Below, in pieces: positions 23,513-56,832 of a stretch of 64,000 nucleotides of DNA. The stretch is from an uncultured Thermoleophilia bacterium. GTDB taxonomy: Bacteria; Actinomycetota; Thermoleophilia; Gaiellales; Gaiellaceae. The notes beneath the pieces are model-generated. The model worked only from the letters and a program-made list of their open reading frames with translations. It was not told the origin of the DNA and did not search any database. The stretch spans positions 53,590 through 117,589 of the forward strand of contig CAWAWV010000006.1 of assembly GCA_963785875.1 (NCBI GenBank), read 5' to 3'. A program made the position numbers and the translations under genes. Each line of letters starts with the position of its first letter. Position 1 is the stretch's first letter.

Positions 23513-24696
<1,184 letters not shown>

Positions 24697-24700
<4 letters not shown>

Positions 24701-25766: not shown

Positions 25767-26953
25767 TCATCGGTCGGCGCGCAGCGCACGGTCGACGAAC
25801 GCGGCAGCCGAGCCGAGGTACTCGTCCGGGCCGGCTCGCGCCGTCGATGCCCGAAGCTGCCGGCCTCGGAGAGCGTGTCGCCCGGCGATGTTCGCGCGCA
25901 TGCGCTCGGCATCGACCTCGAGCCCCTCGAGCGAGCTCCGCGGCGGCGGCGGCGCGCCGCCGGTCGGCGGCCGAGCGCCGTCGTGAGCGCGTGCCACTCC
26001 GCATGCCAGGCCCCGGCCGCGCGCTCGTGCTCGGCGACGATGCTCTCGAAGAGGATCGCCGCAGTTCGCCCGCGCGTGGCGCTCGCACGCGACGCGCGAG
26101 CGACCGCGCGCGACCGGGTTCTGCTTGTGCGGCATCGTCGACGATCCGCCGCCCGCCGACTCCGCGACCTCTGCCACCTCGGTCTGCGCGAGCAGCACGA
26201 CGTCCTTCGCGATCTTCGCGGCAGGCCGGCGGCCGTCGCGAGCGCGCCCGCCGACGTCGGCGAGCGGCGTGCGCAGCGTGTGCCACGGAACGGTCGGCTC
26301 GCGCAGCTGAGCTCGGCCGCGAACAGGCGGGCGACCTCCGGCCCCGCGTCGCCGAAGCGCCGCGAGCGTGCCCGGCGGCGCCGCCGAGCTGCGCCGGCAG
26401 GCTCTCCGTGACGGCCGCGCACGCGGTCGCGGGCGTCGAGCGTGCCGGTCAGCCACGCCCGCCGCCTTGTAGCCGAAGGTCGTCGGGACGGCCTGCTGCA
26501 GGAGCGTGCGCGCCGCGAGCACCGTCCCGCGGTGCTCGTCCGCGAGCCGCGCGCACGCGTCGGCGAGCCGGCCGAGCTCGGCGTCGACGAGCCGCAGCGC
26601 CTCCCTCGCGACGAGCATCGCCGCCGTGTCGAGGATGTCCTGGCTCGTCGCGCCGCGGTGCGCGAGCCGCGGCGCCCCGGTCGCGCAGTGCCCGGACGAG
26701 CGGGACGACCGGGTTCCCCGACGCGCGGCCGAGCCGGGCGAGCTCCGCCGCATCGAACCCGGACGGGTCGTCGCAGAGCTTCGCGACCGTCTCCGCGTCG
26801 GCGGCTGTTCAGCGTGCCCGCGAGCGACTGCGCACGCGCGAGCGCACGCTCGGCCGCGAGAAGCCCCGCGACCCACGCGCGGTCGGAGACCGCCGCCGCG
26901 AGCTCGTCCGGGATGAAGATGGCCGTGAAGGGGCTCACCCCGCGAGCGTACAT
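25767..26953 (-). pseudogene. pcaB: 3-carboxy-cis,cis-muconate cycloisomerase (fumarate-lyase superfamily), frameshifted
   Basis: ORFs 25760..26974 and 25767..26876 give FTAIFIPDELAAAVSDRAWVAGLLAAERALARAQ, HRGATSQDILDTAAMLVAREAL, TLLQQAVPTTFGYKAAG and GSSTMPHKQNPV (lyase signature). The start is either 26953 or 26974. Confidence 0.8.
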
Positions 26954-26998: not shown

Positions 26999-27370
26999 CT
27001 AGACGCCTTCGATGTAGTCGCGGATGACGGCGCTCGACCCGACGTCGAGCGACACCGAGCCGCCTCGAAGCTGGACGCGCGTCGCGTCTGCCGAAATCGC
27101 CACCGTCCAGCCGTGCAGCTCGACGCCGCGGGTCGCGACCTCGAGGATCTGCTTCGCGCGTCCGTCGCGCGTGTCGGCGGGAGCGGTGTTGAGCGTGAAC
27201 GCGACCACGTCGACGACGCGCTCGGGGCTCTCGTCGCGCAGCTCCTGCAAGTTGAGATCGATCGCCGCTGCGACCGGCGCGAGCGTGAGATCGGTGGGGG
27301 TCTTCGGCCTGAGGGTCATGGCGGGATCCTCGGGCAGGCGGGACCTGTGCGAATCGTGGGCAGCCCGCAC
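26999..27370 (-). CDS. Hypothetical protein heading the pcaB-pcaL-pobA string (107 aa if started at ATG 27319)
   Basis: This is an intact ORF with GC3-rich codons. It reads MTLRPKTPTDLTLAPVAAAIDLNLQELRDES..VELHGWTVAISADATRVQLRGGSVSLDV. I recognise no family. Confidence 0.5.
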   Translation of the reverse strand: MRAAHDSHRSRLPEDPAMTLRPKTPTDLTLAPVAAAIDLNLQELRDESPERVVDVVAFTLNTAPADTRDGRAKQILEVATRGVELHGWTVAISADATRVQLRGGSVSLDVGSSAVIRDYIEGV

Positions 27371-27468
27371 CTCGCCGCGGAGAAACTACTGCCGAAGTTC
27401 GCCGGTCGGCCGCGCGGGCGTTAGGGTTGGAGGCGGCTCGGGCGCCGAAGTCGGAGGAGGCTGAATCA

Positions 27469-28853
<1,385 letters not shown>

Positions 28854-28889: not shown

Positions 28890-30436
28890 CTCTTCCTCGC
28901 CACGGGCACGGGCATTGTGGTCGCGGTCGAGGAAGCTGTTGGCCCACGCGCTCGTCCCCGCGAGGGCGTTGTCCTTGACGACCACCGGGCCGTCGAGCAG
29001 TGGTCGGCCTCGCCGAACGCCTTGCGGCGCTCGTAGGCCTGCGACCAGATGCACTCGGTGTCGTAGACCTCGCAGAGGCCGTCGCGGGTGCCGCCGCAGG
29101 GCCCGTTGCGCTGGTTCTTCGCGCACATCGACTCGGGGCAGACGTAGGCGATCTCCGGCAGCGAGCAGTCGCCGCAGTCGCGACAGCGGAACAGCGTCAC
29201 CTTCGCCGCCTGCTCGAGCCCGTGCGCCGCCCGCCGCACCACGCGCGGCCCGCGGTCGAGCCCGCGGTAGACGGCTCGGCCGGCGGGGCGCAGCGGCGCA
29301 TCTTCGCGCGAAGACGGCGTCGTGCAGCCGCCGGCTGAAACGGTACGGAGCGGCACGCGCAGGTCGGTGCGCCGCCGCGCCGTCGACTCCACGTAGGAGG
29401 AGCTGAGGGCGTCCGACGAGAGGCCCGTGTCCGGGTCGGGCTCGAAGAAGAGGAACTCGTCCGGGAACGGAAAGCGGATCTCGCCGCGCGAAGCCCCGCC
29501 AGTCGTCCGCTCCGTAGGCGGCGGCGCGCGTCGAGGATCTCGCCGAAGGTCGCGGCGGGCATGTGCCCGCCGAGGTACACGCCGGCGAAGCCGAGGCCGC
29601 GCGCCACGGCGACGTGCTTCGCCGCGAGGTCGAGGAAGAAGGCGCGGCCCTTGTCCGCGCTCGCCGCCGTGCCGCTCGGCGAGCGCGAGCAGCTCGTCCG
29701 TGACGACGACGCCCGGGATCGTGCCGCGGTGGAACGCGCGCGCGGCCGAGCGTGAGAGCAGATAGACGTTCGCGAGCGGCTGCACGTCGAGCGCGTCGCG
29801 GCGGATGAAGCGGAGCAGCTCGTCGTCCTTGCGCACGTCCCAGCCGATCTGGTTGATCACGAAGCGCGCCCCGGCCGCGACCTTCTTCCGCAGCTTCAGG
29901 TACTGCGGCACCACCTCGCGCTCGTGGCGCTTGTGGTTCGTGACGACGCAGCCGAGGAAGAAGTCCGTCCGGTCGAGCCGCGTCGCCGGCCGGCGCTCGT
30001 CGGGCAGCCCCTCGTTCATGTCCGCGAGCAGCGCGATCAGCCCGACCGAGTCGATGTCGAAGACCGGCGCCGCCAGTCCCTTGTGCCCGGCGACCGGATA
30101 GTCGCCGGAGAGCGCGAGGACGTTGTCGAAGCCCTCCGAGCCGAGCTTCCAGGCCCGGCTCTCGAGCGCGTTGCGGTTCCAGTCCTTGCAGGCGAGGTGG
30201 ATCACGACCTCCTGGCCGCGCGCGACGAGGTCGGTGCCGAGCGTGTCGGGCGCGAGCATCGCGTGGCCGCCCGGGTTGTCGGTGATCGACAGCACGTCGA
30301 TGCGCGGGTCGGCCGCGAGCTCGCGCGCGACCGCCTGCAGCTCCCGGCCGCTCGACGCCGTGATCAGGCCGCGGCTCGTGACGAGCTCCGCCGCGACGAC
30401 GAACGCGTGCCCGAGCCGGTCGCGCAATCCGGTCAT
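28872..30436 (-). pseudogene. metF: Methylenetetrahydrofolate reductase (MetF domain) fused to a Cys-rich MTHFR C-terminal domain, frameshifted
   Basis: ORF 28793..30436 gives the N-terminus MTGLRDRLGHAFVVAAELVTSRG..DVLSITDNPGG..VIHLACKDWNRNALES..LALSGDYP..FVINQIGWD. The C-terminal part reads FRCRDCGDCSLPEIAYVCPESMCAKNQRNGPCGGTRDGLCEV. The tail is in ORF 28872..30575. Confidence 0.8.
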
Positions 30437-31384
30437 CCGACGTCGGGGGTGCCGTAGGTGTGGAAGCTCTCGATCGTCTCCACGCCCCAGAACTGGCCGC
30501 GGGCGCGCTCGGCTCGGCCGTCCAGGCGACGGGCTCGAAGTCCGGGTCGTAGACGAAGTAGCCGCCGGTCGTCACCTCGATCCGGTTGCCGCCGGGCTCG
30601 AGGCCGTAGAGGAAGAAGCCCTGCGCGATCGCGTGCTTCGACGGAGCGGCCTCGATCGGGACGCCGTGGTCGACGAACAGGTCGGCCGCGCGCAGGCACT
30701 CCTCGCGCGTGTCGACCCAGAACGCGAGGTGGTGCAGCCGGCCGCGCGCGCCGTAGGGGTCGCGCGACGTAGATCAGCTCGTGCGCGGCGATCGTCAGGC
30801 TCATCCAGGCGCCCGTCTCGGTGCCGTCGTCGAGCTCGATCCGCTCGTAGAGGCGGTAGCCGAGGACGCTCCTGCGCGAAGTCGCGGCTCGCGCGCACGT
30901 CGGCGGCGAGCAGGTTGACGTGGTCGAGCCGCTTCACGCACGCGCCCCGCCCGACGTAGCGCTGCGGCTGGTTTCGCCACGACGGCCGCAGGTGGTCGGG
31001 GGCGACGTAGCGCTCGGCCTCGTAGTAGAGCTCGAAGACGTGCCCGTCAGGGTCGGTGAAGCGGTAGGCGGGGCCGTGGCCGACGTCGCCGTCGATCCAG
31101 CCGATGCCCGAGGCCCGTCGCCTCGATCGCCGCGACGCGCCGCTCGAGCGCCTCCGGGCTCCAGGCCCGCAGCGCCATGTGCCCGAGCCCGGCCTGCGAC
31201 GACTCGGTCAGCTTGAGGCTGTAGCGCAGGTAGTCGCCCCAGCCGCGCAGGTAGACGGACTGCGCGTCTCGCGCCTCCTCCTCCATCCCGAGCACGTCGA
31301 CGAAGAAGCGCAGGCTCTCCTCCGGCTTCGGCGTCAGCAGCTCGGCGTGGCCGATGCGGGCGACGTCGCTGCATCGCTTCGCAC
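30433..31384 (-). pseudogene. Type I (VOC-fold) extradiol ring-cleavage dioxygenase, catechol 2,3-dioxygenase-like, frameshifted
   Basis: Blocks present: RIGHAELLTPKPEESLRFFVDVLGMEEEA..VYLRGWGDYLRYSLKLTE (ORF 31047..31295), GHGPAYRFTDPDGHVFELYYE, KRLDHVNLLAADV, LHHLAFWVD and GFFLYGLEPGGNRIEV. They are spread over three frames. Confidence 0.75.
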
Positions 31385-31388
31385 GATC

Positions 31389-32001
31389 TCACCAGCGCCC
31401 GCAGGCCGTCGAGGTCGTAGGAGAGCGCGCCCGCCTGCAGCTGCGCGCGCTTCACGCGCTCCCGCTCGGCGCGCGCCCGCGCAGCCGGCAGCACCTCGTC
31501 GACGCGCTCGCGCTCGACGACGACCGCGCCGTCGGCGTCGAGCACGACGACGTCGCCCTGCGGATCGTCGCGCCGCCGACCTCGACCGGCTCGCCGATCG
31601 TGCCCGGCACCTCCTTCTCGGCAGCCGCGACGCGGACCAGCGCGCCCAGACCGGCAGGCCGAGCTCGCGCAGCTCGTCGACGTCGCGGACGGCGGCGTCG
31701 ACGAGCAGCGCCGCGACGCCGCGCCCCTTCGCCTGGGTCGCGAGCAGCTCGCCGACGAGCGCGTGCGGCGCCGGCTCGGGCATCGTCAGCACGAGCACCT
31801 CGCCCGGCTCCGCCTCGGCGATCGCAGCGTGCACCATCAGGTTGTCGCCCTGCGCCGCAGCGGACGGTGCGGGCGGGGCCGGCGGCCGCGCGAGCCCGGG
31901 GACGAGCTGGATCAGCGTCGACGTCGACGACCGCGCGAGCGCGCGGCCGCCTCGTGCACGGTCGCGCTCCCCAGCTCGGCGAGCTCGCGTAGGTCGCTCA
32001 C
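31389..32001 (-). pseudogene. RraA-like class II aldolase (4-hydroxy-4-methyl-2-oxoglutarate / 4-carboxy-4-hydroxy-2-oxoadipate aldolase family), frameshifted
   Basis: GTG 32001 overlaps the upstream stop (GTGA). Blocks present: SDLRELAELGSATVHEAA, GDNLMVHAAIAEAEPGEVLVLTMPEPAPHALVGELLATQAKGRGVAALLVDAAVRDVDELRELGLPVWA and GDVVVLDADGAVVVERERV. Confidence 0.7.
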
Positions 32002-32717
32002 AGCTCCTCGACCGACCTGCGGCGTCACGCGCTGGAACGCCTCGGCGTAGCGGATCGCCGCGTTGCCGGACGAGCGGCGCGCGTGGTTGCCGCGCTGCTC
32101 TGCGCGCTGGCCGTAGTAGGTCTGCAGGTACGCCTGCGCCTTCATCTCCGCCATCGCCGCGCGCTTCTGCTCGATCACCGGCGTGATGTCGACGAACGTC
32201 GTCGGCGTGAAGTTGCAGAGCTCGGGCTGGTGCGGCTCGAAGAGGAGGAGCTGCCGGCGGCTCGGACGGTCTCGAACGCGCTCGGCCACCCCCGCGCCGG
32301 CGGCCAGCGCGCGCGCCCGCTCGACCGCGTGGAAGGCGGCCGCGTGATCGGGGTTGAACGGGTCGCGGTCGGTGTGCGTGAGCGATCACGTCCGGGGCGA
32401 ACTCGCGGATCACGTCGGCGAGCCGTCGAGCGCCGTCGCGGTCGACCTCGAGCGGGTAGTCGCCGAGGTCGAGGCGAGGAAGTCGGCGCCCGAGCGCGGC
32501 GGCGGCGCGCTCGGCCTCGCCGTGGCGGATCTCCTTCACGCGCTCGACGGTCTGGCCCGGCTCCTTCCAGAGCTCGCCCGACTCGCCGCGCTCGCCGTAG
32601 GAGAGCGCGAGGACGCGCGCCGACGCCGCCGTTCGCGGTCGTCACGGCGATCGCGCCGCCCGCCCGCCAGACGAAGTCGGCGGAGTGCGCGCCGATCACG
32701 AGCAGGCGGCGGCTCAC
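31998..32717 (-). pseudogene. PIG-L/LmbE-family zinc hydrolase, GalB-type 4-oxalomesaconate hydratase candidate, frameshifted
   Basis: GTG 32717 overlaps the upstream stop. Blocks present: RRLLVIGAHSADFVWRAGGAIAVTTANGG, KEIRHGEAERAAAALG, LLLFEPHQPELCNFTPTTFVDITPVIEQKRAAMAEMKAQAYLQTYY and IRYAEAFQRVTPQV. Confidence 0.65.
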
Positions 32718-33648
32718 GCTGCACCCGGCCAGCCGCCGCGAGTTCGGTCGACGACCACTCGTCGCACCTCGTCCTCGCCGAAGCCGGCGTCGAGCAGCCG
32801 GTCGGCCCAGAGCGCGAGCCCGTCCTCGACGGGCGGGTAGTCGGGGTTGCCGAAGTCGCTCGAGAAGACGTTGCGCTCGAGGCCGACCGCGCGGATGCCC
32901 TCGAAGACGTGCTCCCAGGTCGACTTGCCGCTCAGCGGCGTGCTGAGAGCAGCGCTCGAAGAGGCAGCCGCGCGCCGGCGAGCGCGACCTGGTCCTCGAC
33001 CGAGTAGTTCTGGCTCGGGAACTCCGGATGGGTGACGACGACGCGCTCGACGCCCTCCGCGAACGCCGCGTCGACGACCGCGAACGCGTCGTCGCGGCCG
33101 AGGTGCGCCGGTCGCGAGCACGAGCCCGTGCCGCGCGATCGTCGCGGAGCACCTCGCGCGTCTCGCGGAGGCACGGCGCCGTCGTCGCCGCGGTCACGCG
33201 CACCGGGTCGATCTCGAGCCCGAGGCCGCGCAGCTCGTGCTGGAGCCCCGCCCAGATCGGCACGTTGTCACCCGGCTTCGGCTCGGTGCGCCCCGCCGTC
33301 TCGGCCGGCGAGTCGAAGGTCGGCATCCAGACGATCCGCGCTCCCTCGCGGGCGGCGATCTCGACGGCGAGCGGGTTCATGCCGCCGACCGCGCGGTTGA
33401 GCGTCAGCGTCCCGATCACGCGCACGCCCGGCACGACGCCCGAGACGACCTGCGCACGCTCGGCGGTCGAGGTGTAGTGCGACTTGAGCGCGAAGCCGGC
33501 GAGGCCGAGCTCCGCGAAGCGGCGCGCGAGCGCCACGTCGTCGATCCGCCGCGGCGAGCACGTCGGGCGCGATGTGGACGTGCAGGTCGTAGCCGCCGCG
33601 GACGAGCTCGCGTGCACGCTCGCGTCGGCTCGGACTCCGGTCGGTCAC
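32714..33648 (-). pseudogene. Amidohydrolase-fold (TIM-barrel metal hydrolase) protein, possible lactonase, frameshifted
   Basis: Blocks present: GGYDLHVHIAPDV (ORF 33268..33648), RRIDDVALARRFAELGLAGFALKSHYTSTAERAQVV..LTLNRAVGGMNPLAVEIAAREGARIVWMPTFDS (ORF 32175..33617), VVVTHPEF and VFSSDFGNPDYPPVEDGLALWADRLLDAGF (ORF 32714..33121). Confidence 0.6.
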
Positions 33649-33654
33649 CGGCCA

Positions 33655-34429
33655 CCCTAGCCGCGCCGAGGTCGGCGAGCGACGGCGCGCCGCTCGCGGC
33701 GGCGATGCGCGGCTCGACCCCGAGCTCGCGCGAGCAGCTCGCCGCGGCGTCCATCTCCTCGACGCGCCGCGCGGCGTGGCGCCGGCTGCCCTCGAGCGAG
33801 GCGCTCAGCAGCGCGGCGCCGATCGCCTCGGCGAGCTGCTCGCTCGAGCCAGTCCGCGTGGCCGGCCGCCGTCGGCGGCGTCGAGGCTCTCGAGCGCGGC
33901 GGCGGCGAGGCCCTTCATGAAGACGGAGCGCAGGAGCTTGCAGCGCGGCGGCGTCGCCGGGCTCGTCGGAGACGACCTCGACCGGCATCCCGAGCGGGCC
34001 GAGCAGCGCGGCGAACGCCTCGGCGCCCGGCGCCGGAGGCGAGCGCCGGCGTGCGCAGCCCGCGCGCCGGCACCGGGCCGAGCAGGGCGACGTCGGCGAA
34101 GCGCGGCGCCCGGCGGGCTCGACGAGCGCGGCGAGCTCGCGCTTCAGCGCCGGCGCCGCGGTGTTCAGGTCGGCGTAGACGGCGCCCGGCGCGAGCGCCG
34201 GCAGCGCCGCCGCGGCCGCACCGCGGAGCGACCGCCGCGCGAGTCGACGCTGAGCACGACCTCGCAGCCGCGCGGCCGCCGCCGCGGGATCGGCCGCGCG
34301 CGCGACTCCCCGGCACCGGCGACGGCGCCGGGTCGAAGCCGCGCACCTCGGCGCCCGCTGCGACGAGGTCGGCCGCGAGCCGCCGCCCGCCTCGCCGAGC
34401 CCGAGCACCGCGAAGGCCGGCGCGCTCAT
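33655..34429 (-). pseudogene. NAD(P)-binding oxidoreductase (6-phosphogluconate-dehydrogenase-like N-domain, DUF1932-type C-domain), frameshifted
   Basis: Starts at ATG 34429 and reads [29 protein letters not shown] (Rossmann fold). Further blocks: VYADLNTAAPALKRELAALVEPAG, FADVALLGPVP and AEAFAALLGPLGMPVEVVSDEPGDAAAL. The 3' end is approximate. Confidence 0.6.
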
Positions 34430-35421
34430 CGCGGCGCCCAGAGCCGTGCGGACGGCGGCGACGATCTCGGCCCGGCCGGGCAGGTACGCGTCCTCGAGCG
34501 GCGGGCTGAACGGGAACCGGCGCGAACGGGGCGCCGACCCGCGCGACCGGCGCGTCGAGGTCGTCGAAGCCGCCTCCTGCACGCAGCGCCGCGATCTCCG
34601 CGCCGAAGCCGCCGTGCGCGACCGCCTCGTGCGCGACGACGAGCCGGTGCGTCCGCCGCACCGAGCCGACGATCGTCTCGCAGGTCGAGCGGGACGAGCG
34701 TGCGCGGGTCGATCACCTCGACCTCGATCCCGCCTCGGCGGCGAGCTCGCTCCGCCGCGGCGAGCGCCTCGTGGACGAGCCGCGAGAGCGCGACGACCGT
34801 GACGTCGCGGCCCGGCGCGGCACGACGCGCGCGCGGCCGAGCGGCACCGGCCGCGGGCTGTCCGGGCACCTCCTCCGCGCCGGAAGTAGAGCGTCTTGTT
34901 CTCGACGAAGACGACCGGGTTCGGGTCGGCGATCGCGCTCGCGAGCAGGCCGGCCGCGTCGGCCGGCCGTGCTCGGCATCGCCACCTTCAGCCCCGGCAC
35001 GTGCGTCAGCCAGCCTCGAGGCTCTGCGAGTGCTGCGCGCGCGCCCCGCTGGCCGGCGCCGCCCTGCGTCCGCAGCGACGAGCGGCACCGTCAGCTGGCC
35101 GCCCGACATGAAGTGCGCCTTCGCCGCCGCGTTCGACGAGCTGGTCGAGCGCGAGCGTGAGGAAGTCGACGAACATGATCTCGAGCACCGGCCGGAGCCC
35201 CGACTGCGCGGCGCCGATCGCGACGCCCGCTGATCGCCGCCTCGCTGATCGGCGTGTTGCGGACGCGCTCGGCGCCGAACTCCTCGGCGAGCCCGGCGGT
35301 CGCGCCCCACGGGCCGCCCTCGGCGACGTCCTCGCCGAGCACGAGCACGCGCTGGTCGGCGCGCATCGCCTCGCGCGAGCGTCGACGGTGATCGCGCCGA
35401 GATAGTCGTCGTCTCAGTCAT
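34426..35421 (-). pseudogene. Thiamine-diphosphate-dependent 2-oxoacid/acetoin dehydrogenase E1 beta subunit (pair a), frameshifted
   Basis: Blocks present: [40 protein letters not shown] (ORF 35091..35366), [78 protein letters not shown] and [18 protein letters not shown]. Confidence 0.75.
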
Positions 35422-36440
35422 CCGCGTAGACCAGCTCCGCGGTCAGCGACGGCCGTCGGGAACGGGCTCTCGCGCGCGAACCGCACCGCCGCGCTCGACC
35501 TCGTCGCGCGGCCGCGGCCTCGAGCCGCGCCGGCGCCTCGCTCGTCGAGCCAGCCCTCGCGCGAGCGCCGCGCCGCTGCAGCCGGAGGATCGGGTCGAGC
35601 TCGCTGCCACTCCGCGCTCGGCGAGCGCCTGCGCGGTAGCGCTGCGGGTCGCCCTCGTAGTGCCCGCGCAGCGCGGTGCGTCAGGCACTCGAGCAGGAAC
35701 GGCCCCCCGCCCGTCCGCGCCGCGGCGAGGAAGCGCCCGAACGCCTCGCGCACGGCGAGGACGTCGTTGCCGTCGACCGTCTCGCGCTCGAGCCCGTACG
35801 GCGCGACGACGTCGCGACACGCGCTCGACGACCGTGTGCGCCGAGCGCGGCGTGAACTCGGCGAAGCCGTTGTTCTCGCAGACGAGGATCGAGCGGCAGC
35901 CGCCAGAGCGCCGCGAGGTTGACCGACTCGACGAAGATGCCCCGCCTGGACGGCGCCGTCGCCGAAGAAGACGACCGCGACCGCATCGCGTGCCGCGCAG
36001 CCGCGCCGCGAGCGCGCTGCCGAGCGCGAGCGGGACGTTGCCGCCGACGACGCCCGGTCGCGCCGAGGAAGCCGTGCTCGGCGTCGACGAGGTGCATCGA
36101 GCCGCCGAGCCCGCGGCAGAGGCCGCGCGTCGCGCCCCATCAGCTCGGCGAGCACCCGCTCGAGCGGCGCGCCCTTCGCGAGCGCGTGCCCGTGCGCGCG
36201 GTGGCTCGAGTAGACGGCGTCGTCGTCGCGCAGCTGCGCGCAGACGCCGGCCGCGACGCCCTCCTGGCCGATCGCTCAGGTGGACGAGCCCGTGCGACCT
36301 CGCTCGGCGCGCGTGAGCTGCCCGACGCGCTCCTCGAAGACGCGGATCCGCCACATCGACGCGGAGCAGCTCGACGGCCTGCGCCGCCGTCGAGCTTCCC
36401 CACGTACGGCCTCACGCGGTCACAGGCGCCGTCGCCGAGC
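35418..36440 (-). pseudogene. TPP-dependent E1 alpha subunit (pair a), frameshifted
   Basis: Blocks present: GGSMHLVDAEHGFLGATG, VVGGNVPLALGSALAARLRG, VVFFGDGAVQAG, LILVCENNGFAEFTPRSAH and VDGNDVLAVREAFGRFLAAARTGGGPFLLEC. They come from ORFs 35418..36155, 35443..36354 and 35681..36097. The 5' end is approximate. Confidence 0.75.
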
Positions 36441-37408
36441 ACCTGCGCACCGCGGCGACGATCTTCGCCTCGTCCGGCAGGAGGTACTCCTCCATCGGCT
36501 CGGCTGTACGGGATCGTCGCGTCGAGCGCCGTCACCTGGCCGATCGGCGCCTTCGAGCGAGCCGAACCCGTGCTCGACGCGACCTCGCGCCGCGATCACC
36601 GCCGCCGCCGACGCCGTGCCGCGTCGCCTGGTCGACGAGCACGAGGCGGCCCGTCTTCTCGACGGACTCGAGGATCGTCGCGCGTGTCGAGCGGCGCGAG
36701 CGTGCGCGGGTCGATCACCTCCGCCTGGATCCCCTGCTCCGCCAGCTGCTCGGCCGCGCCGAGCGCCTGGTCGACGCGTCCAGCCGATGCCGACGATCGT
36801 CACGTCGCCGCCCTCGCGCCGGACCGCCGCCTCGCCGAACGGGACGACGTGCTCGCCGTCGGGCACCTCGCCGTGCTCGAGGGTGAGCAGGTAGTGGTGG
36901 AGGTAGACGACCGGGTTGTCGTCGCGGATCGCGGTCGTCATCAGGCCCTTCGCGTCGGCGGCCGTCGACGGGGACGGCGACCTTGAGGCCGGGCACGCCC
37001 ATGAACATCCCGTAGATCGTGCCCGTGTGCTGGCCGGCCCAGCCGGCGGTGAACCCGTAGCCGGCCTTCAGCACGATCGGCACCTTCACCTGGCCGCCGC
37101 TCATGTCGTGGAAGCGCGGCGCCTCGTTCACGACCTGGTCCATCGCGACGAGCATGAACTCGGCCATGTACAGCTCGACGACCGGCCGGTAGCCGGCGAG
37201 CGCCGCGCCGACGGCCATGCCGATCTCGGCCGTCTCGGAGATCGGCGTCACGCGGACGCGGTCGCTCGCCGAACGCTGTCAGGAACGGGTCGTTCTCCGT
37301 CGTGGCGATGTTCTGGCCGAAGTAGAGGACGGACTCGTCGCGCTCCATCTCCTCGCGGATCGCCTCCTCGATCGCGGCGATGTAGGGAAGCTCGTGTGCC
37401 ATCGTCAT
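36420..37408 (-). pseudogene. TPP-dependent E1 beta subunit (pair b, AcoB-like), frameshifted
   Basis: GAGGAGGA lies before ATG 37408. The product reads MTMAHELPYIAAIEEAIREEMERDESVLYFGQN. Further blocks: TPISETAEIGMAVGAALAGYRPVVELYMAEFMLVAMDQVVNEA, GWAGQHTGTIYGMFMGVPGLKVAVP, AIRDDNPVVYLHH and DVTIVGIG. Confidence 0.8.
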
Positions 37409-37416
37409 CGTCCTCC

Positions 37417-38450
37417 TCAGGCGTAGACGTAGTCGAGGGCGTCTTCGGCCGCCGGGAACGGGCTCGCGAGCCCGAAGTCGACCGCCGCCTGCATCTCCTC
37501 GCGCACCTGCGCGGCGATCGCGTCGGCCTCCTCGGCCGGTGAGCGTGCCGTCCGCTGACGAGCCGCGCCGCGGAAGCGCGGGCACGGGGTCGCCGCGCTT
37601 CGCCGCCTCGTACTCCTCGGCGTTGCCGAACACGGCGATCGCCTCGTGCTCCGGGAAGTGGAGCGGCACGCCGGGCGGCGCGATGATGTTGCCGTGCGCG
37701 CTGAGCCGGTAGATGTGCGACTCGACGAGCGTCGGGCCGCCGCCGGAGCGCGCGCGCTCGACCGCCGCGCGCGACGGTCTCGTAGCACCTCGAGCGGGTC
37801 GCCGCCGTCGACGGTGACGCCGCGGCATGCTGAGTACGCCTTCGCCTTCACCGCGAGCGGCTCGCCGGCCGCGGCGTTCGCGTCCTCCTGCTCGGCGCGC
37901 GTGACGACGTTGTAGCCGTTGTTCTCCATCACGTAGACGATCGGCAGCTTCCAGAGCGAGGCGATGTTCAGCGACTCGTGGAACGCGCCCTGCTTCGAGG
38001 CGCCGTCGCCGAAGAAGCAGAGGACGACCTGCCCCTTGCCGCGGATCTGCGCCGCGTAGGCGGCGCCGGTCGCATGCGGGATGCCCTGCGCGACGATCCC
38101 GGAGGTGCCGAGGAAGCCGCGCGCGACGTCGGTGAGGTGCATCGAGCCGCCGTAGCCGCCGCAGAGCCCGTCCCTGCGGCCGTAGATCTCGGCCATCATC
38201 GCCTTCGGGTCGGTGCCGAGCGCGATCGGGTAGCCGTGGCAGCGGTACGTCGTGAGCAGCTGGTCGTCCGGCGCGCAGCGCCGCGAGCGAGCCGACGATC
38301 GACGCCTCGGCGCCGTCGGCGAGGTGCGTGTGCCCGCGGATCACGCCCGGGTGCTCCTCGAACGTCCGCTTGACGCGCTCCTCGAACTCGCGGATCCGCA
38401 GCATCTGCGTGTAGCATCCAGATGAGGCGCTCCTGGTCGAGGTCTCGGAC
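37417..38450 (-). pseudogene. TPP-dependent E1 alpha subunit (pair b, AcoA-like), frameshifted
   Basis: ORF 37417..38199 gives MMAEIYGRRDGLCGGYGGSMHLTDVARGFLGTSGIVAQGIPHATGAAYAAQIRGKGQVVLCFFGDGASKQGAFHESLNIASLWKLPIVYVMENNGYN. The N-terminus (TQMLRIREFEERVKRTFEEHPGVIRGHTHLADGAEA) is in another frame. The 5' end is approximate. Confidence 0.8.
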
Positions 38451-56096: not shown

Positions 56097-56832
56097 TCAG
56101 GGCTCCTCGACCGGCGTCGTGCCGCCGCCGCCGCGGCCGAGCACGATGTCCCAGCGGTAGCCGAGCGCCCAGTCCGGCTGCGTCGTGCTCGAGGTCGAAG
56201 CTCGAGACCAGCAGCTCGCGCGCCTTCGGGTCGCGGACCGAGTGGAAGATCGGGTCGAACGCGAACAGCGGGTCGCCCGGGAAGTACATCTGGGTGACGA
56301 GCCGCTGCGTGAACGCCCGCCCGAACACCGAGAAGTGGATGTGCGCCGGGCGCCACGCGTTCTCGTGGTTGCCCCAGGGGTACGAGCCCGGCTTGATCGT
56401 GACGAAGCGGTAGTTGCCCGTCGGCGTCGGTGAGGCAGCGGCCGGCACCGGAGAAGTTCGGGTCGAGCGGCGCGGGATGCTGGTCGACGACGTGGTGGTA
56501 GCGGCCGGCCGCGTTCGCCTGCCAGACCTCGACGAGCGCGCCGCGGACGGGCCGGCCGTCCTCGTCGAGCACCCGGCCGCTGACGACGATCCGCTCGCCG
56601 AGCGGCTCGCCGGCGTGCTGCCGCGTCAGGTCGTCGTCGAGCTCGTCGATCGCGCTCCTCCCCGAACACCGGCCCGGCAAGCGCGTGGAGCTCCTCGGGC
56701 AGCGACACGAGCGGCCGCGTCGGCGCGCGCAGCCGCGTCGAGCGGTAGCCCGGGTAGTCGACCTGGACCTCCGGCGCCGAAGGCCGGATCGTCCGGGAGA
56801 ACGACCGGCTCGCTCGATCGGTCCGCGCTCAC
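56097..56832 (-). pseudogene. pcaH: Protocatechuate 3,4-dioxygenase beta subunit, frameshifted
   Basis: GTG 56832 overlaps the pcaJ stop. Blocks present: YPGYRSTRLRAPTRPLVSLP, GEPLGERIVVSGRVLDEDGRPVRGALVEVWQANAAGRYHH, NYRFVTIKPGSYPWGNHENAWRPAHIHFSVFGRAFTQRLVTQMYFPGDPLFAFDPIF and WALGYRWDIVL. Confidence 0.85.

Follow-up and report, generated by a model that had tools for sequence, protein, structure and literature searches.

A conserved five-gene module of Gaiellales as a candidate variant route from lignin-derived hydroxybenzoates to pyruvate and oxaloacetate

A string of five genes in the genome of an uncultured Thermoleophilia bacterium (Gaiellales; Gaiellaceae; GenBank GCA_963785875.1) raises the question of which aromatic ring is opened, and by which chemistry, when a catechol 2,3-dioxygenase-like protein stands beside enzymes of the gallate type. 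The string lies in a stretch of 64,000 nucleotides of contig CAWAWV010000006.1 (positions 53,590 to 117,589; hereafter the window), which has ~73% G+C and belongs to contig C6 of a 3.14-Mb metagenome-assembled genome (MAG) of 15 contigs that is 77% complete. On the minus strand, positions 30433-34429 encode a DUF1932 protein, a DUF6282 protein, a PIG-L protein, an RraA-like aldolase and a two-domain vicinal oxygen chelate (VOC) extradiol dioxygenase, in that order. The most likely reading of our results is that these five genes open the rings of lignin-derived di- and trihydroxybenzoates and carry the products to pyruvate and oxaloacetate, with three of the five families lying outside the textbook route.

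All five genes are frame-broken in the window, and the boundaries given below are projected from the intact orthologous operon of a relative, G007. When 41 related genomes were searched at the DNA level, G007 proved to hold this stretch at 83% nucleotide identity, and seven others hold more diverged versions. The G007 genes are unbroken and overlap from start to stop (DUF1932, 252 amino acids; DUF6282, 308; PIG-L, 236; RraA-like, 206; VOC dioxygenase, 319); they are followed by a gene for a methylenetetrahydrofolate reductase (MTHFR)-DUF5981 fusion, and PurU lies upstream. The module genes of the window are as follows.

About 33653 to 34429, minus strand: DUF1932/NAD_binding_2 NAD(P)-dependent oxidoreductase (Pfam PF09130; tblastn match at 34420-33692; projection from G007).
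32714 to 33648, minus strand: DUF6282 amidohydrolase-superfamily protein (PF19799; DLHVH encoded at 33588-33574).
31998 to 32717, minus strand: GalB-type PIG-L-fold hydratase homologue (match to 5CGZ; start and stop overlap the neighbouring genes).
About 31383 to 32001, minus strand: RraA-like class II pyruvate aldolase of the HMG (4-hydroxy-4-methyl-2-oxoglutarate)/CHA (4-carboxy-4-hydroxy-2-oxoadipate) type (match to 3NOJ).
30433 to about 31386, minus strand: type I (VOC) extradiol dioxygenase with two domains, 'His' subtype (TIGR03211, PDB matches and motifs).

Fragments of the minus-strand open reading frames (ORFs) matched the Pfam families Glyoxalase, RraA-like, PIG-L, DUF6282 and DUF1932. 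The span 30433-34429, which an earlier note on this DNA had given for the cluster, coincides with the boundaries projected from G007, with all five families present on the minus strand, and the amidohydrolase-fold peptide quoted there, GGYDLHVHIAPDV, is encoded at 33540-33660.

The last two steps of the proposed route rest on strong homology to characterised enzymes. As scored on the intact G007 orthologue, from which most homology scores for the module proteins were taken, the PIG-L protein matched GalB (5CGZ) end to end (204.3 bits, residues 1-236 against 1-239), whereas the best deacetylases (TT1542, chitobiose deacetylase, MshB and BshB) gave no more than 30.5 bits and the protein scored far under the cut-offs of the NCBIfam deacetylase equivalogs. 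The protein therefore does not group with the deacetylases, the outcome that the earlier note had named as speaking against a GalB-type enzyme. In the alignment, the AHSAD, (N/Y)xDH and FEPHQPE regions are identical between GalB and the G007 protein, and the window itself encodes the motifs AHSADF, GERGES, NPDH and FEPHQPE, whose His/Asp and His residues we take to be metal ligands, as is general for the family. Close homologues carry the JGI label 4-oxalomesaconate hydratase. Similarly, the RraA-like protein matched the HMG/CHA aldolase 3NOJ with 159 bits, C-terminal helix included, and keeps R40, N71, H75, R123, D124, G144, K147, R195 and E199, with D102 replaced by E and T145 by A. In HMG/CHA aldolase, Arg-123 is catalytic, Asp-124 and Glu-199 are metal ligands, and roles have been assigned to the pocket residues (PMC5065237). 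Against TIGR02798 the G007 protein scored 161.7, the cut-off being 304.5. Overall, the hydratase-aldolase pair is as well supported as homology allows, and the activities predicted for it are the oxalomesaconate and CHA steps that had been proposed for the pairing.

The five families also occur as a unit well beyond the window. For the counts that follow, 80 Gaiellales species genomes with DUF6282 were fetched and mapped by tblastn. The order DUF1932, DUF6282, PIG-L, RraA, dioxygenase is complete in ~64 of the 80, and most of the remaining loci are truncated where a contig ends. Three architectures are found in the order Gaiellales: besides that of the window, other families of the order have GMC (glucose-methanol-choline) oxidoreductase, dioxygenase, DUF6282, PIG-L, RraA and DUF1932, with LigM, MTHFR or pobA nearby, and in four genomes (L048, L062, L072 and L080 with L108-L111) the module is split into two blocks ~8 kb apart on the same contig. 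In the split form, one block has a Liv-type ABC transporter adjoining DUF6282, dioxygenase, LigM and MTHFR, and the other has GMC oxidoreductase, PIG-L, RraA and DUF1932. We rejected the idea that genomes with a DUF6282-dioxygenase pair possess an extra, second upper branch, as they hold a single set in two operons ~8 kb apart. Outside the phylum, all five families are adjacent on plasmid pTHEOS01 of Thermus oshimai JL-2 (NC_019387.1, THEOS_RS11025-11050), with 53-67% identity, in the order dioxygenase, GntR, DUF6282, PIG-L, aldolase, DUF1932, and annotated by family names only; pobA, a two-subunit ring-hydroxylating dioxygenase and an HpaE-like aldehyde dehydrogenase are neighbours there in place of LigM and MTHFR, and neither an intradiol nor a LigB-type dioxygenase was found on that plasmid. 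A plasmid of Alicyclobacillus dauci has GntR, DUF6282 and PIG-L at the end of the record. The co-occurrence of the five families in ~64 Gaiellales genomes and in Thermus supports the earlier suggestion of a non-orthologous variant of the pathway.

Consistent with the same note, the ring opener of the module is a type I VOC enzyme and not one of the LigAB/GalA type. The G007 protein matched PF00903 twice and passed TIGR03211 (332.1 against a cut-off of 320.2), and the LigB domain PF02900 had a single match in the genome, on contig C1, with none in the cluster or the window. Among PDB entries the best match was 9WGJ (396 bits), followed by the alkylcatechol enzyme AphC (7Q2A) and 3LM4 (274 bits); AphC, a 4-alkylcatechol dioxygenase, is the nearest characterised relative, with 43% identity and a Foldseek template-modelling (TM) score of 0.86. 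The metal ligands sit in LDHVN, LHHLAF and GGNRIE, and AHELIY is encoded at 30786-30769. In an alignment of module-linked dioxygenases, H155, H218, E269, Y259 and H250 are invariant and H201 is present in the window's subtype, such that the His/His/Glu metal triad and the catalytic His and Tyr are kept in the window's enzyme. There are two subtypes: the second-sphere His (AAHELIY) occurs in the window, G007 and 77 loci, and Tyr (KSYD/KTYD) takes its place in G003, G030, G034, G009, G013, Thermus oshimai and 9WGJ. Tyr at this position is unusual among type I extradiol dioxygenases. A conserved Arg in EER(A/K)RGQ (EERARGQ), which is absent from AphC, aligns beside R292/R293 of homoprotocatechuate dioxygenase (HPCD), a region with which HPCD holds the carboxylate of its substrate; as a lead, this suggests an acidic substrate for the dioxygenase.

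With regard to 9WGJ, which is ~57% identical to the window's dioxygenase (counted from the alignment) and has Tyr at the catalytic His, we found no paper naming the entry, and it is absent from Foldseek's PDB listing. Two candidates for it were discarded: PraA of Paenibacillus, whose gene of 881 bp is too short (PMC13254512), and the catechol 2,3-dioxygenase of Bacillus ligniniphilus, a monomeric Mn enzyme for 3-alkylcatechols, to which no link was found.

The position that LigI occupies in the textbook route is held by a different protein of amidohydrolase fold, as had been noticed. Against PF19799 the fragment from the window scored 104.5 bits and the G007 orthologue 200 bits; the LigI family PF04909 had no Pfam match in that orthologue. 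The fold is shared. No sequence relative was found in the PDB at E ≤1. An AlphaFold2 model (mean predicted local distance difference test score, 95.7) is an amidohydrolase TIM barrel with conserved H25, H27, K57, H59, H182, H207 and D264 (HxH, His, His, Asp). The fold matched binuclear hydrolases with Z scores of 17-20, namely renal dipeptidase-like, PHP and TatD proteins and lactonases like phosphotriesterase (PTE); the dipeptidases, PHP and TatD proteins reached Z 19-20, compared with Z 16.9 (4I6K) and 16.5 (2FFI) for LigI-like structures.

The family comprises 2749 representative clusters at 50% identity. Its distant relatives were seen on contigs of 1-3 kb only, one of which has the order GntR, DUF1932, DUF6282. 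A 616-amino-acid protein, P0123, joins a 53%-identical DUF6282 domain to an HpcH/HpaI class II aldolase domain, either as a fusion or by read-through from the aldolase, and the DUF6282 partner in some lineages may be this different family of pyruvate aldolase. On plasmid NZ_CP084884.1 of Natrinema zhouii, a haloarchaeal DUF6282 gene (~37% identity) has a UGSC family (seleno)protein, a Rieske protein and a further amidohydrolase for neighbours, a different setting for the family and just as uncharacterised. Haloarchaeal DUF6282 genes were rejected as carriers of the module, as their identity is 37% or lower and their contexts are unrelated.

The DUF1932 protein has the Rossmann motif GLGEAGG at 34402-34382, and its G007 orthologue matched PF09130 and PF03446 (NAD_binding_2). 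It is a short Rossmann protein like 6-phosphogluconate dehydrogenase (6PGDH) and 3-hydroxyisobutyrate dehydrogenase (HIBADH), with weak similarity to beta-hydroxyacid dehydrogenases of the HIBADH type; none of its PDB relatives (3QSG, 1I36 and 4EZB) has an assigned function, and Gfo/Idh/MocA, the family of LigC, had no Pfam match in it. As the earlier note had remarked, there is no sign of a GalD/LigU-type isomerase: PF04303 (PrpF family) has no match in the 77%-complete genome or in the conserved neighbourhoods.

From these assignments a route can be drawn in which five enzymes fit the five chemical steps from protocatechuate one-to-one, and this is our preferred model. The VOC dioxygenase would cut the ring next to the para-hydroxyl, giving 4-carboxy-2-hydroxymuconate semialdehyde from protocatechuate, 4-oxalomesaconate directly from gallate, and a methyl ester or 2-pyrone-4,6-dicarboxylate (PDC) from 3-O-methylgallate. 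The DUF1932 dehydrogenase would then oxidise the cyclic hemiacetal of the semialdehyde to PDC, and the metal-dependent DUF6282 protein would open the lactone (or the ester) to 4-oxalomesaconate/4-carboxy-2-hydroxymuconate. The GalB-type hydratase would convert this to CHA, which the RraA-type aldolase would cleave to pyruvate and oxaloacetate. For the first three steps, fold, linkage that is conserved and the bookkeeping of the pathway are the grounds on which we infer the regiochemistry and what DUF1932 and DUF6282 do.

The neighbouring genes bear on which substrate enters this route. In the window they include the following.

28959 to 30436, minus strand: fusion of methylenetetrahydrofolate reductase with the MTHFR C-terminal domain (DUF5981), encoded immediately downstream of the dioxygenase (tblastn, G007 protein as query; the G007 orthologue matches PF02219 and PF12225).
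27346 to 28847, plus strand: LigM-type tetrahydrofolate (THF)-dependent aryl O-demethylase of the GCV_T family, convergent with the MTHFR gene (tblastn).
25964 to 26684: PcaB-like gene of the beta-ketoadipate route, frame-broken.
23568 to 24697, minus strand: pobA-like 4-hydroxybenzoate 3-monooxygenase gene, frame-broken (tblastn with Thermus oshimai PobA, five pieces; the query passes NF006091).
About 56182 to 56762, minus strand: PcaH-like protocatechuate 3,4-dioxygenase beta subunit in three frame pieces (TIGR02422, 140, 133 and 24.5 bits at G000:C6:109771-110351; PF00775).

The VOC protein is the sole ring-cleaving enzyme of the gene string; the window also holds the frame-broken PcaH-like intradiol dioxygenase. 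Among the Gaiellales genomes, LigM-type genes are present at 75 of 80 loci, at ~2.4 per locus, and one Gaiellales homologue gave 502 bits to LigM (5TL4) and a PF01571 match; these demethylase genes, MTHFR and PurU almost always flank the module, a GntR/FCD regulator recurs near it, and pobA lies near it in G030 as well as in the window. PcaH was found in all seven module-bearing relatives tested, and in two of them, G030 and G034, it is no more than ~3 kb away from the module. LigM and PobA are known to yield protocatechuate and gallate. With moderate confidence, we propose that the module, which is normally intact, takes such products (protocatechuate, and probably 3-O-methylgallate and gallate) to pyruvate and oxaloacetate.

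Several results weigh against this proposal. PcaH in the seven relatives means that an ortho route for protocatechuate is already there, and therefore gallate or 3-O-methylgallate may be the main substrate. The split form of the module parts DUF1932 from the dioxygenase and DUF6282, the very enzymes that it should bridge; this weakens its role as the equivalent of LigC and also pulls toward gallate and 3-O-methylgallate as the main physiological substrates. Type I enzymes such as XylE and HPCD usually cut 4-substituted catechols toward the 5-carboxy and not the 4-carboxy isomer. In addition, the DUF6282 protein is equidistant from many amidohydrolase families, such that its fold alone is not diagnostic of a lactonase, a GalD/LigU isomerase is absent, and the G007 aldolase misses NF006731 by 3 bits (176.4 against a cut-off of 179; the Thermus orthologue scores 193.9). 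That DUF1932 and DUF6282 stand in for LigC and LigI is what we infer, with these points in mind.

It is possible, though we think it less probable, that the module is a syringyl branch specific for gallate and 3-O-methylgallate, with protocatechuate passing to PcaHG and the beta-ketoadipate route. The VOC enzyme would then cut beside the third oxygen substituent, as type I enzymes usually do on 3-substituted catechols, DUF6282 would hydrolyse the methyl ester or PDC, and GalB and the aldolase would finish; DUF1932 would not be a semialdehyde dehydrogenase but a partner of the lower block, acting for instance on a product that is a keto or aldehyde acid. The occurrence of PcaH in the seven relatives and in the window, where pcaB-like and pobA genes are also found, fits such a branch, as do the two to three LigM/DesA-type demethylases per locus with MTHFR and PurU and the hydratase of gallate-pathway (GalB) type. 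In the split form, likewise, DUF6282 stays in the block of the dioxygenase and LigM, and DUF1932 in that of the hydratase and aldolase, and the layout would resemble that of Pseudomonas putida KT2440, which, as is generally known, has pca plus gal genes. However, the chemistry of gallate and 3-O-methylgallate has no redox step, and the redox enzyme is kept in every architecture and in Thermus, where the module lies beside pobA with no LigM nearby and adjoins an HpaE-like semialdehyde dehydrogenase, which points to a substrate that forms a semialdehyde. Operon grouping, moreover, need not track the order of steps; in Sphingobium sp. SYK-6, as is generally known, ligJABC and ligKUI are separate operons. 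A LigAB-like cut beside the para-hydroxyl would handle protocatechuate, gallate and 3-O-methylgallate alike, such that the two models overlap and differ mainly in the role of DUF1932. We rank the model in which protocatechuate also enters first, and the one restricted to gallate and its 3-O-methyl ether second, because, if no semialdehyde intermediate is formed, the conservation of a redox enzyme is difficult to account for.

A different meta-cleavage chemistry was also considered and appears unlikely. Protocatechuate could be cleaved proximally (2,3-type), or DUF6282 could act first as a decarboxylase or hydrolase to give a non-carboxylated catechol on which a genuine catechol 2,3-dioxygenase would act; oxalocrotonate would then pass through 4-hydroxy-2-oxoadipate to pyruvate and malonate semialdehyde by way of the GalB and RraA homologues, and DUF1932, as a distant relative of 3-hydroxyisobutyrate dehydrogenase, would reduce or oxidise a semialdehyde. 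Such a scheme draws on the dioxygenase having passed a catechol 2,3-dioxygenase equivalog cut-off with AphC as its nearest characterised relative, on the weak similarity of DUF1932 to HIBADH-type dehydrogenases and its grouping with the aldolase in the split form, on the aromatic-acid decarboxylases of the amidohydrolase superfamily (matched at Z ~16.5), and on the DUF6282 relative fused to or read through from an HpcH/HpaI aldolase. However, the hydratase and aldolase align full-length with the oxalomesaconate and CHA enzymes and retain the catalytic residues, DUF6282 finds its best fold neighbours among binuclear hydrolases and not decarboxylases, and the HPCD-like Arg, absent from AphC, suggests an acidic substrate. 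We also know of no described precedent for the proposed C6 intermediates and their cleavage.

Returning to the preferred model, it is plausible, although we advance it tentatively, that the module represents a third widespread version of protocatechuate/gallate meta-cleavage, in which a VOC enzyme of catechol 2,3-dioxygenase type performs LigAB-like cleavage on carboxylated catechols, DUF6282 (as a metal-dependent pyrone lactonase or ester hydrolase) and DUF1932 (as the hemiacetal dehydrogenase) replace LigI and LigC, and no isomerase is needed. Its carriers would be Thermus, Alicyclobacillus and the abundant Gaiellales of soil, and Chloroflexota and Acidobacteriota have relatives of the families that make it up.

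Whether the module is alive in the present organism depends on the origin of the frame breaks. With the G007 proteins as tblastn queries, the dioxygenase was recovered from the window in four pieces and three frames, DUF6282 in four pieces (it is broken into four or more frame segments), PIG-L and RraA in three pieces each, and DUF1932, which is heavily frame-broken, as a single piece of 43% identity. A nucleotide alignment to G007 contains 83 gaps in 4.1 kb, mostly of 1 nucleotide and with more insertions than deletions, and a plot of G+C by codon position shifts frame every few hundred bases across 28.5-36.5 kb. This very high density of indels, together with the poorer state of the module part of the contig relative to the first 21 kb of the window, is what speaks for a decayed pseudogene cluster with genuine indels. 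However, the essential rpoB gene of the same genome (G000:C9:59596-62925) likewise lies in five pieces alternating between two frames, which indicates indel errors throughout the assembly, and the broken stretches are spread over all contigs: coverage by clean long ORFs is patchy over the whole set of 15 (mean ~0.5, range 0-0.9 per 10-kb bin). Further, the genome is only 77% complete although it is in just 15 contigs; none of the catalytic motifs of the five enzymes has been lost, scattered as they are over three frames; where the dioxygenase, PIG-L and DUF6282 genes can be read in frame, differences from G007 fall at third codon positions 2-2.5 times as often as at first and second positions; and orthologues are intact in about 64 related genomes, many of the relatives being long-read soil MAGs. 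Because rpoB is frame-split too and the orthologues are intact, the breaks are very probably assembly errors, and genuine decay is highly improbable. The practical message for the window is that its genes are mis-assembled, not dead.

The indels between 30400 and 34500 are, relative to G007, mostly single inserted C or G residues outside homopolymer runs, with insertions about twice as frequent as deletions; this error signature could help to pin down a sequencing or polishing problem.

Compared with described systems, the module is a new version of a known pathway and not a new type of system. It shares its logic with protocatechuate 4,5-cleavage in SYK-6 (LigAB, LigC, LigI, LigU, LigJ and LigK, fed by LigM/DesA), namely O-demethylation with THF and extradiol cleavage, followed by a dehydrogenase, a hydrolase of amidohydrolase fold, a hydratase and an RraA-type aldolase that yields pyruvate and oxaloacetate; the module aldolase belongs to the family of LigK, and the demethylase is the LigM homologue scored above. 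In contrast, a type I VOC dioxygenase stands in the place of LigAB, a 6PGDH-like DUF1932 protein in that of LigC (Gfo/Idh/MocA), DUF6282 with a full set of metal ligands in that of LigI (PF04909) and a PIG-L (GalB) hydratase in that of LigJ, an amidohydrolase, and LigU has no counterpart. The gallate pathway of KT2440 (GalA, GalD, GalB and GalC) has the same pairing of PIG-L hydratase and RraA aldolase, with full-length homology to the module proteins (the structures compared being GalB, 5CGZ, and the HMG/CHA aldolase of P. putida F1, 3NOJ), and KT2440 and the carriers of the module both have a separate PcaHG route for protocatechuate. The ring opener of KT2440 is, however, the LigB-type GalA, used with the isomerase GalD, whereas the module has a VOC enzyme and no GalD, and the gal cluster lacks equivalents of its two additional conserved genes, DUF1932 and DUF6282. 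AphC of Rhodococcus rhodochrous EP4 shares the two-domain type I fold and the Fe(II) triad with the module dioxygenase but serves an alkylphenol pathway whose lower enzymes are of the classical hydrolase or dehydrogenase kind and is without the EER(A/K)RGQ arginine. The Thermus dioxygenase, which is of the 'Tyr' subtype, belongs to a cultured strain with the whole set on a plasmid, which makes the module directly testable.

Our literature searches found no publication on the five-gene set, on DUF6282 or on DUF1932. Gaiellales are among the commonest uncultured actinobacteria in soil, and to our knowledge no route for lignin-derived vanillate and syringate has been described in them. If the proposal is true, it would assign functions to two DUF families, reveal a type I extradiol dioxygenase able to feed the oxalomesaconate branch, and supply an annotation rule for genes now called 'catechol 2,3-dioxygenase', 'PIG-L deacetylase' and 'DUF6282'.

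Two further observations concern the surroundings of the module. Directly upstream of the DUF1932 gene, the window has two pairs of E1 alpha/beta thiamine-diphosphate enzyme genes (34426-38450), which are outside the conserved module; elsewhere the same position is held by PurU, in G007 and nine other loci, or in many cases by a divergent LigM gene. Finally, genes for phosphoenolpyruvate (PEP)-utilising or pyruvate-phosphate-dikinase-like proteins lie within 8 kb of the module at ~20 Gaiellales loci (for example L079:6113-8065 and L051:15020-16168) and may link the pyruvate product to PEP.

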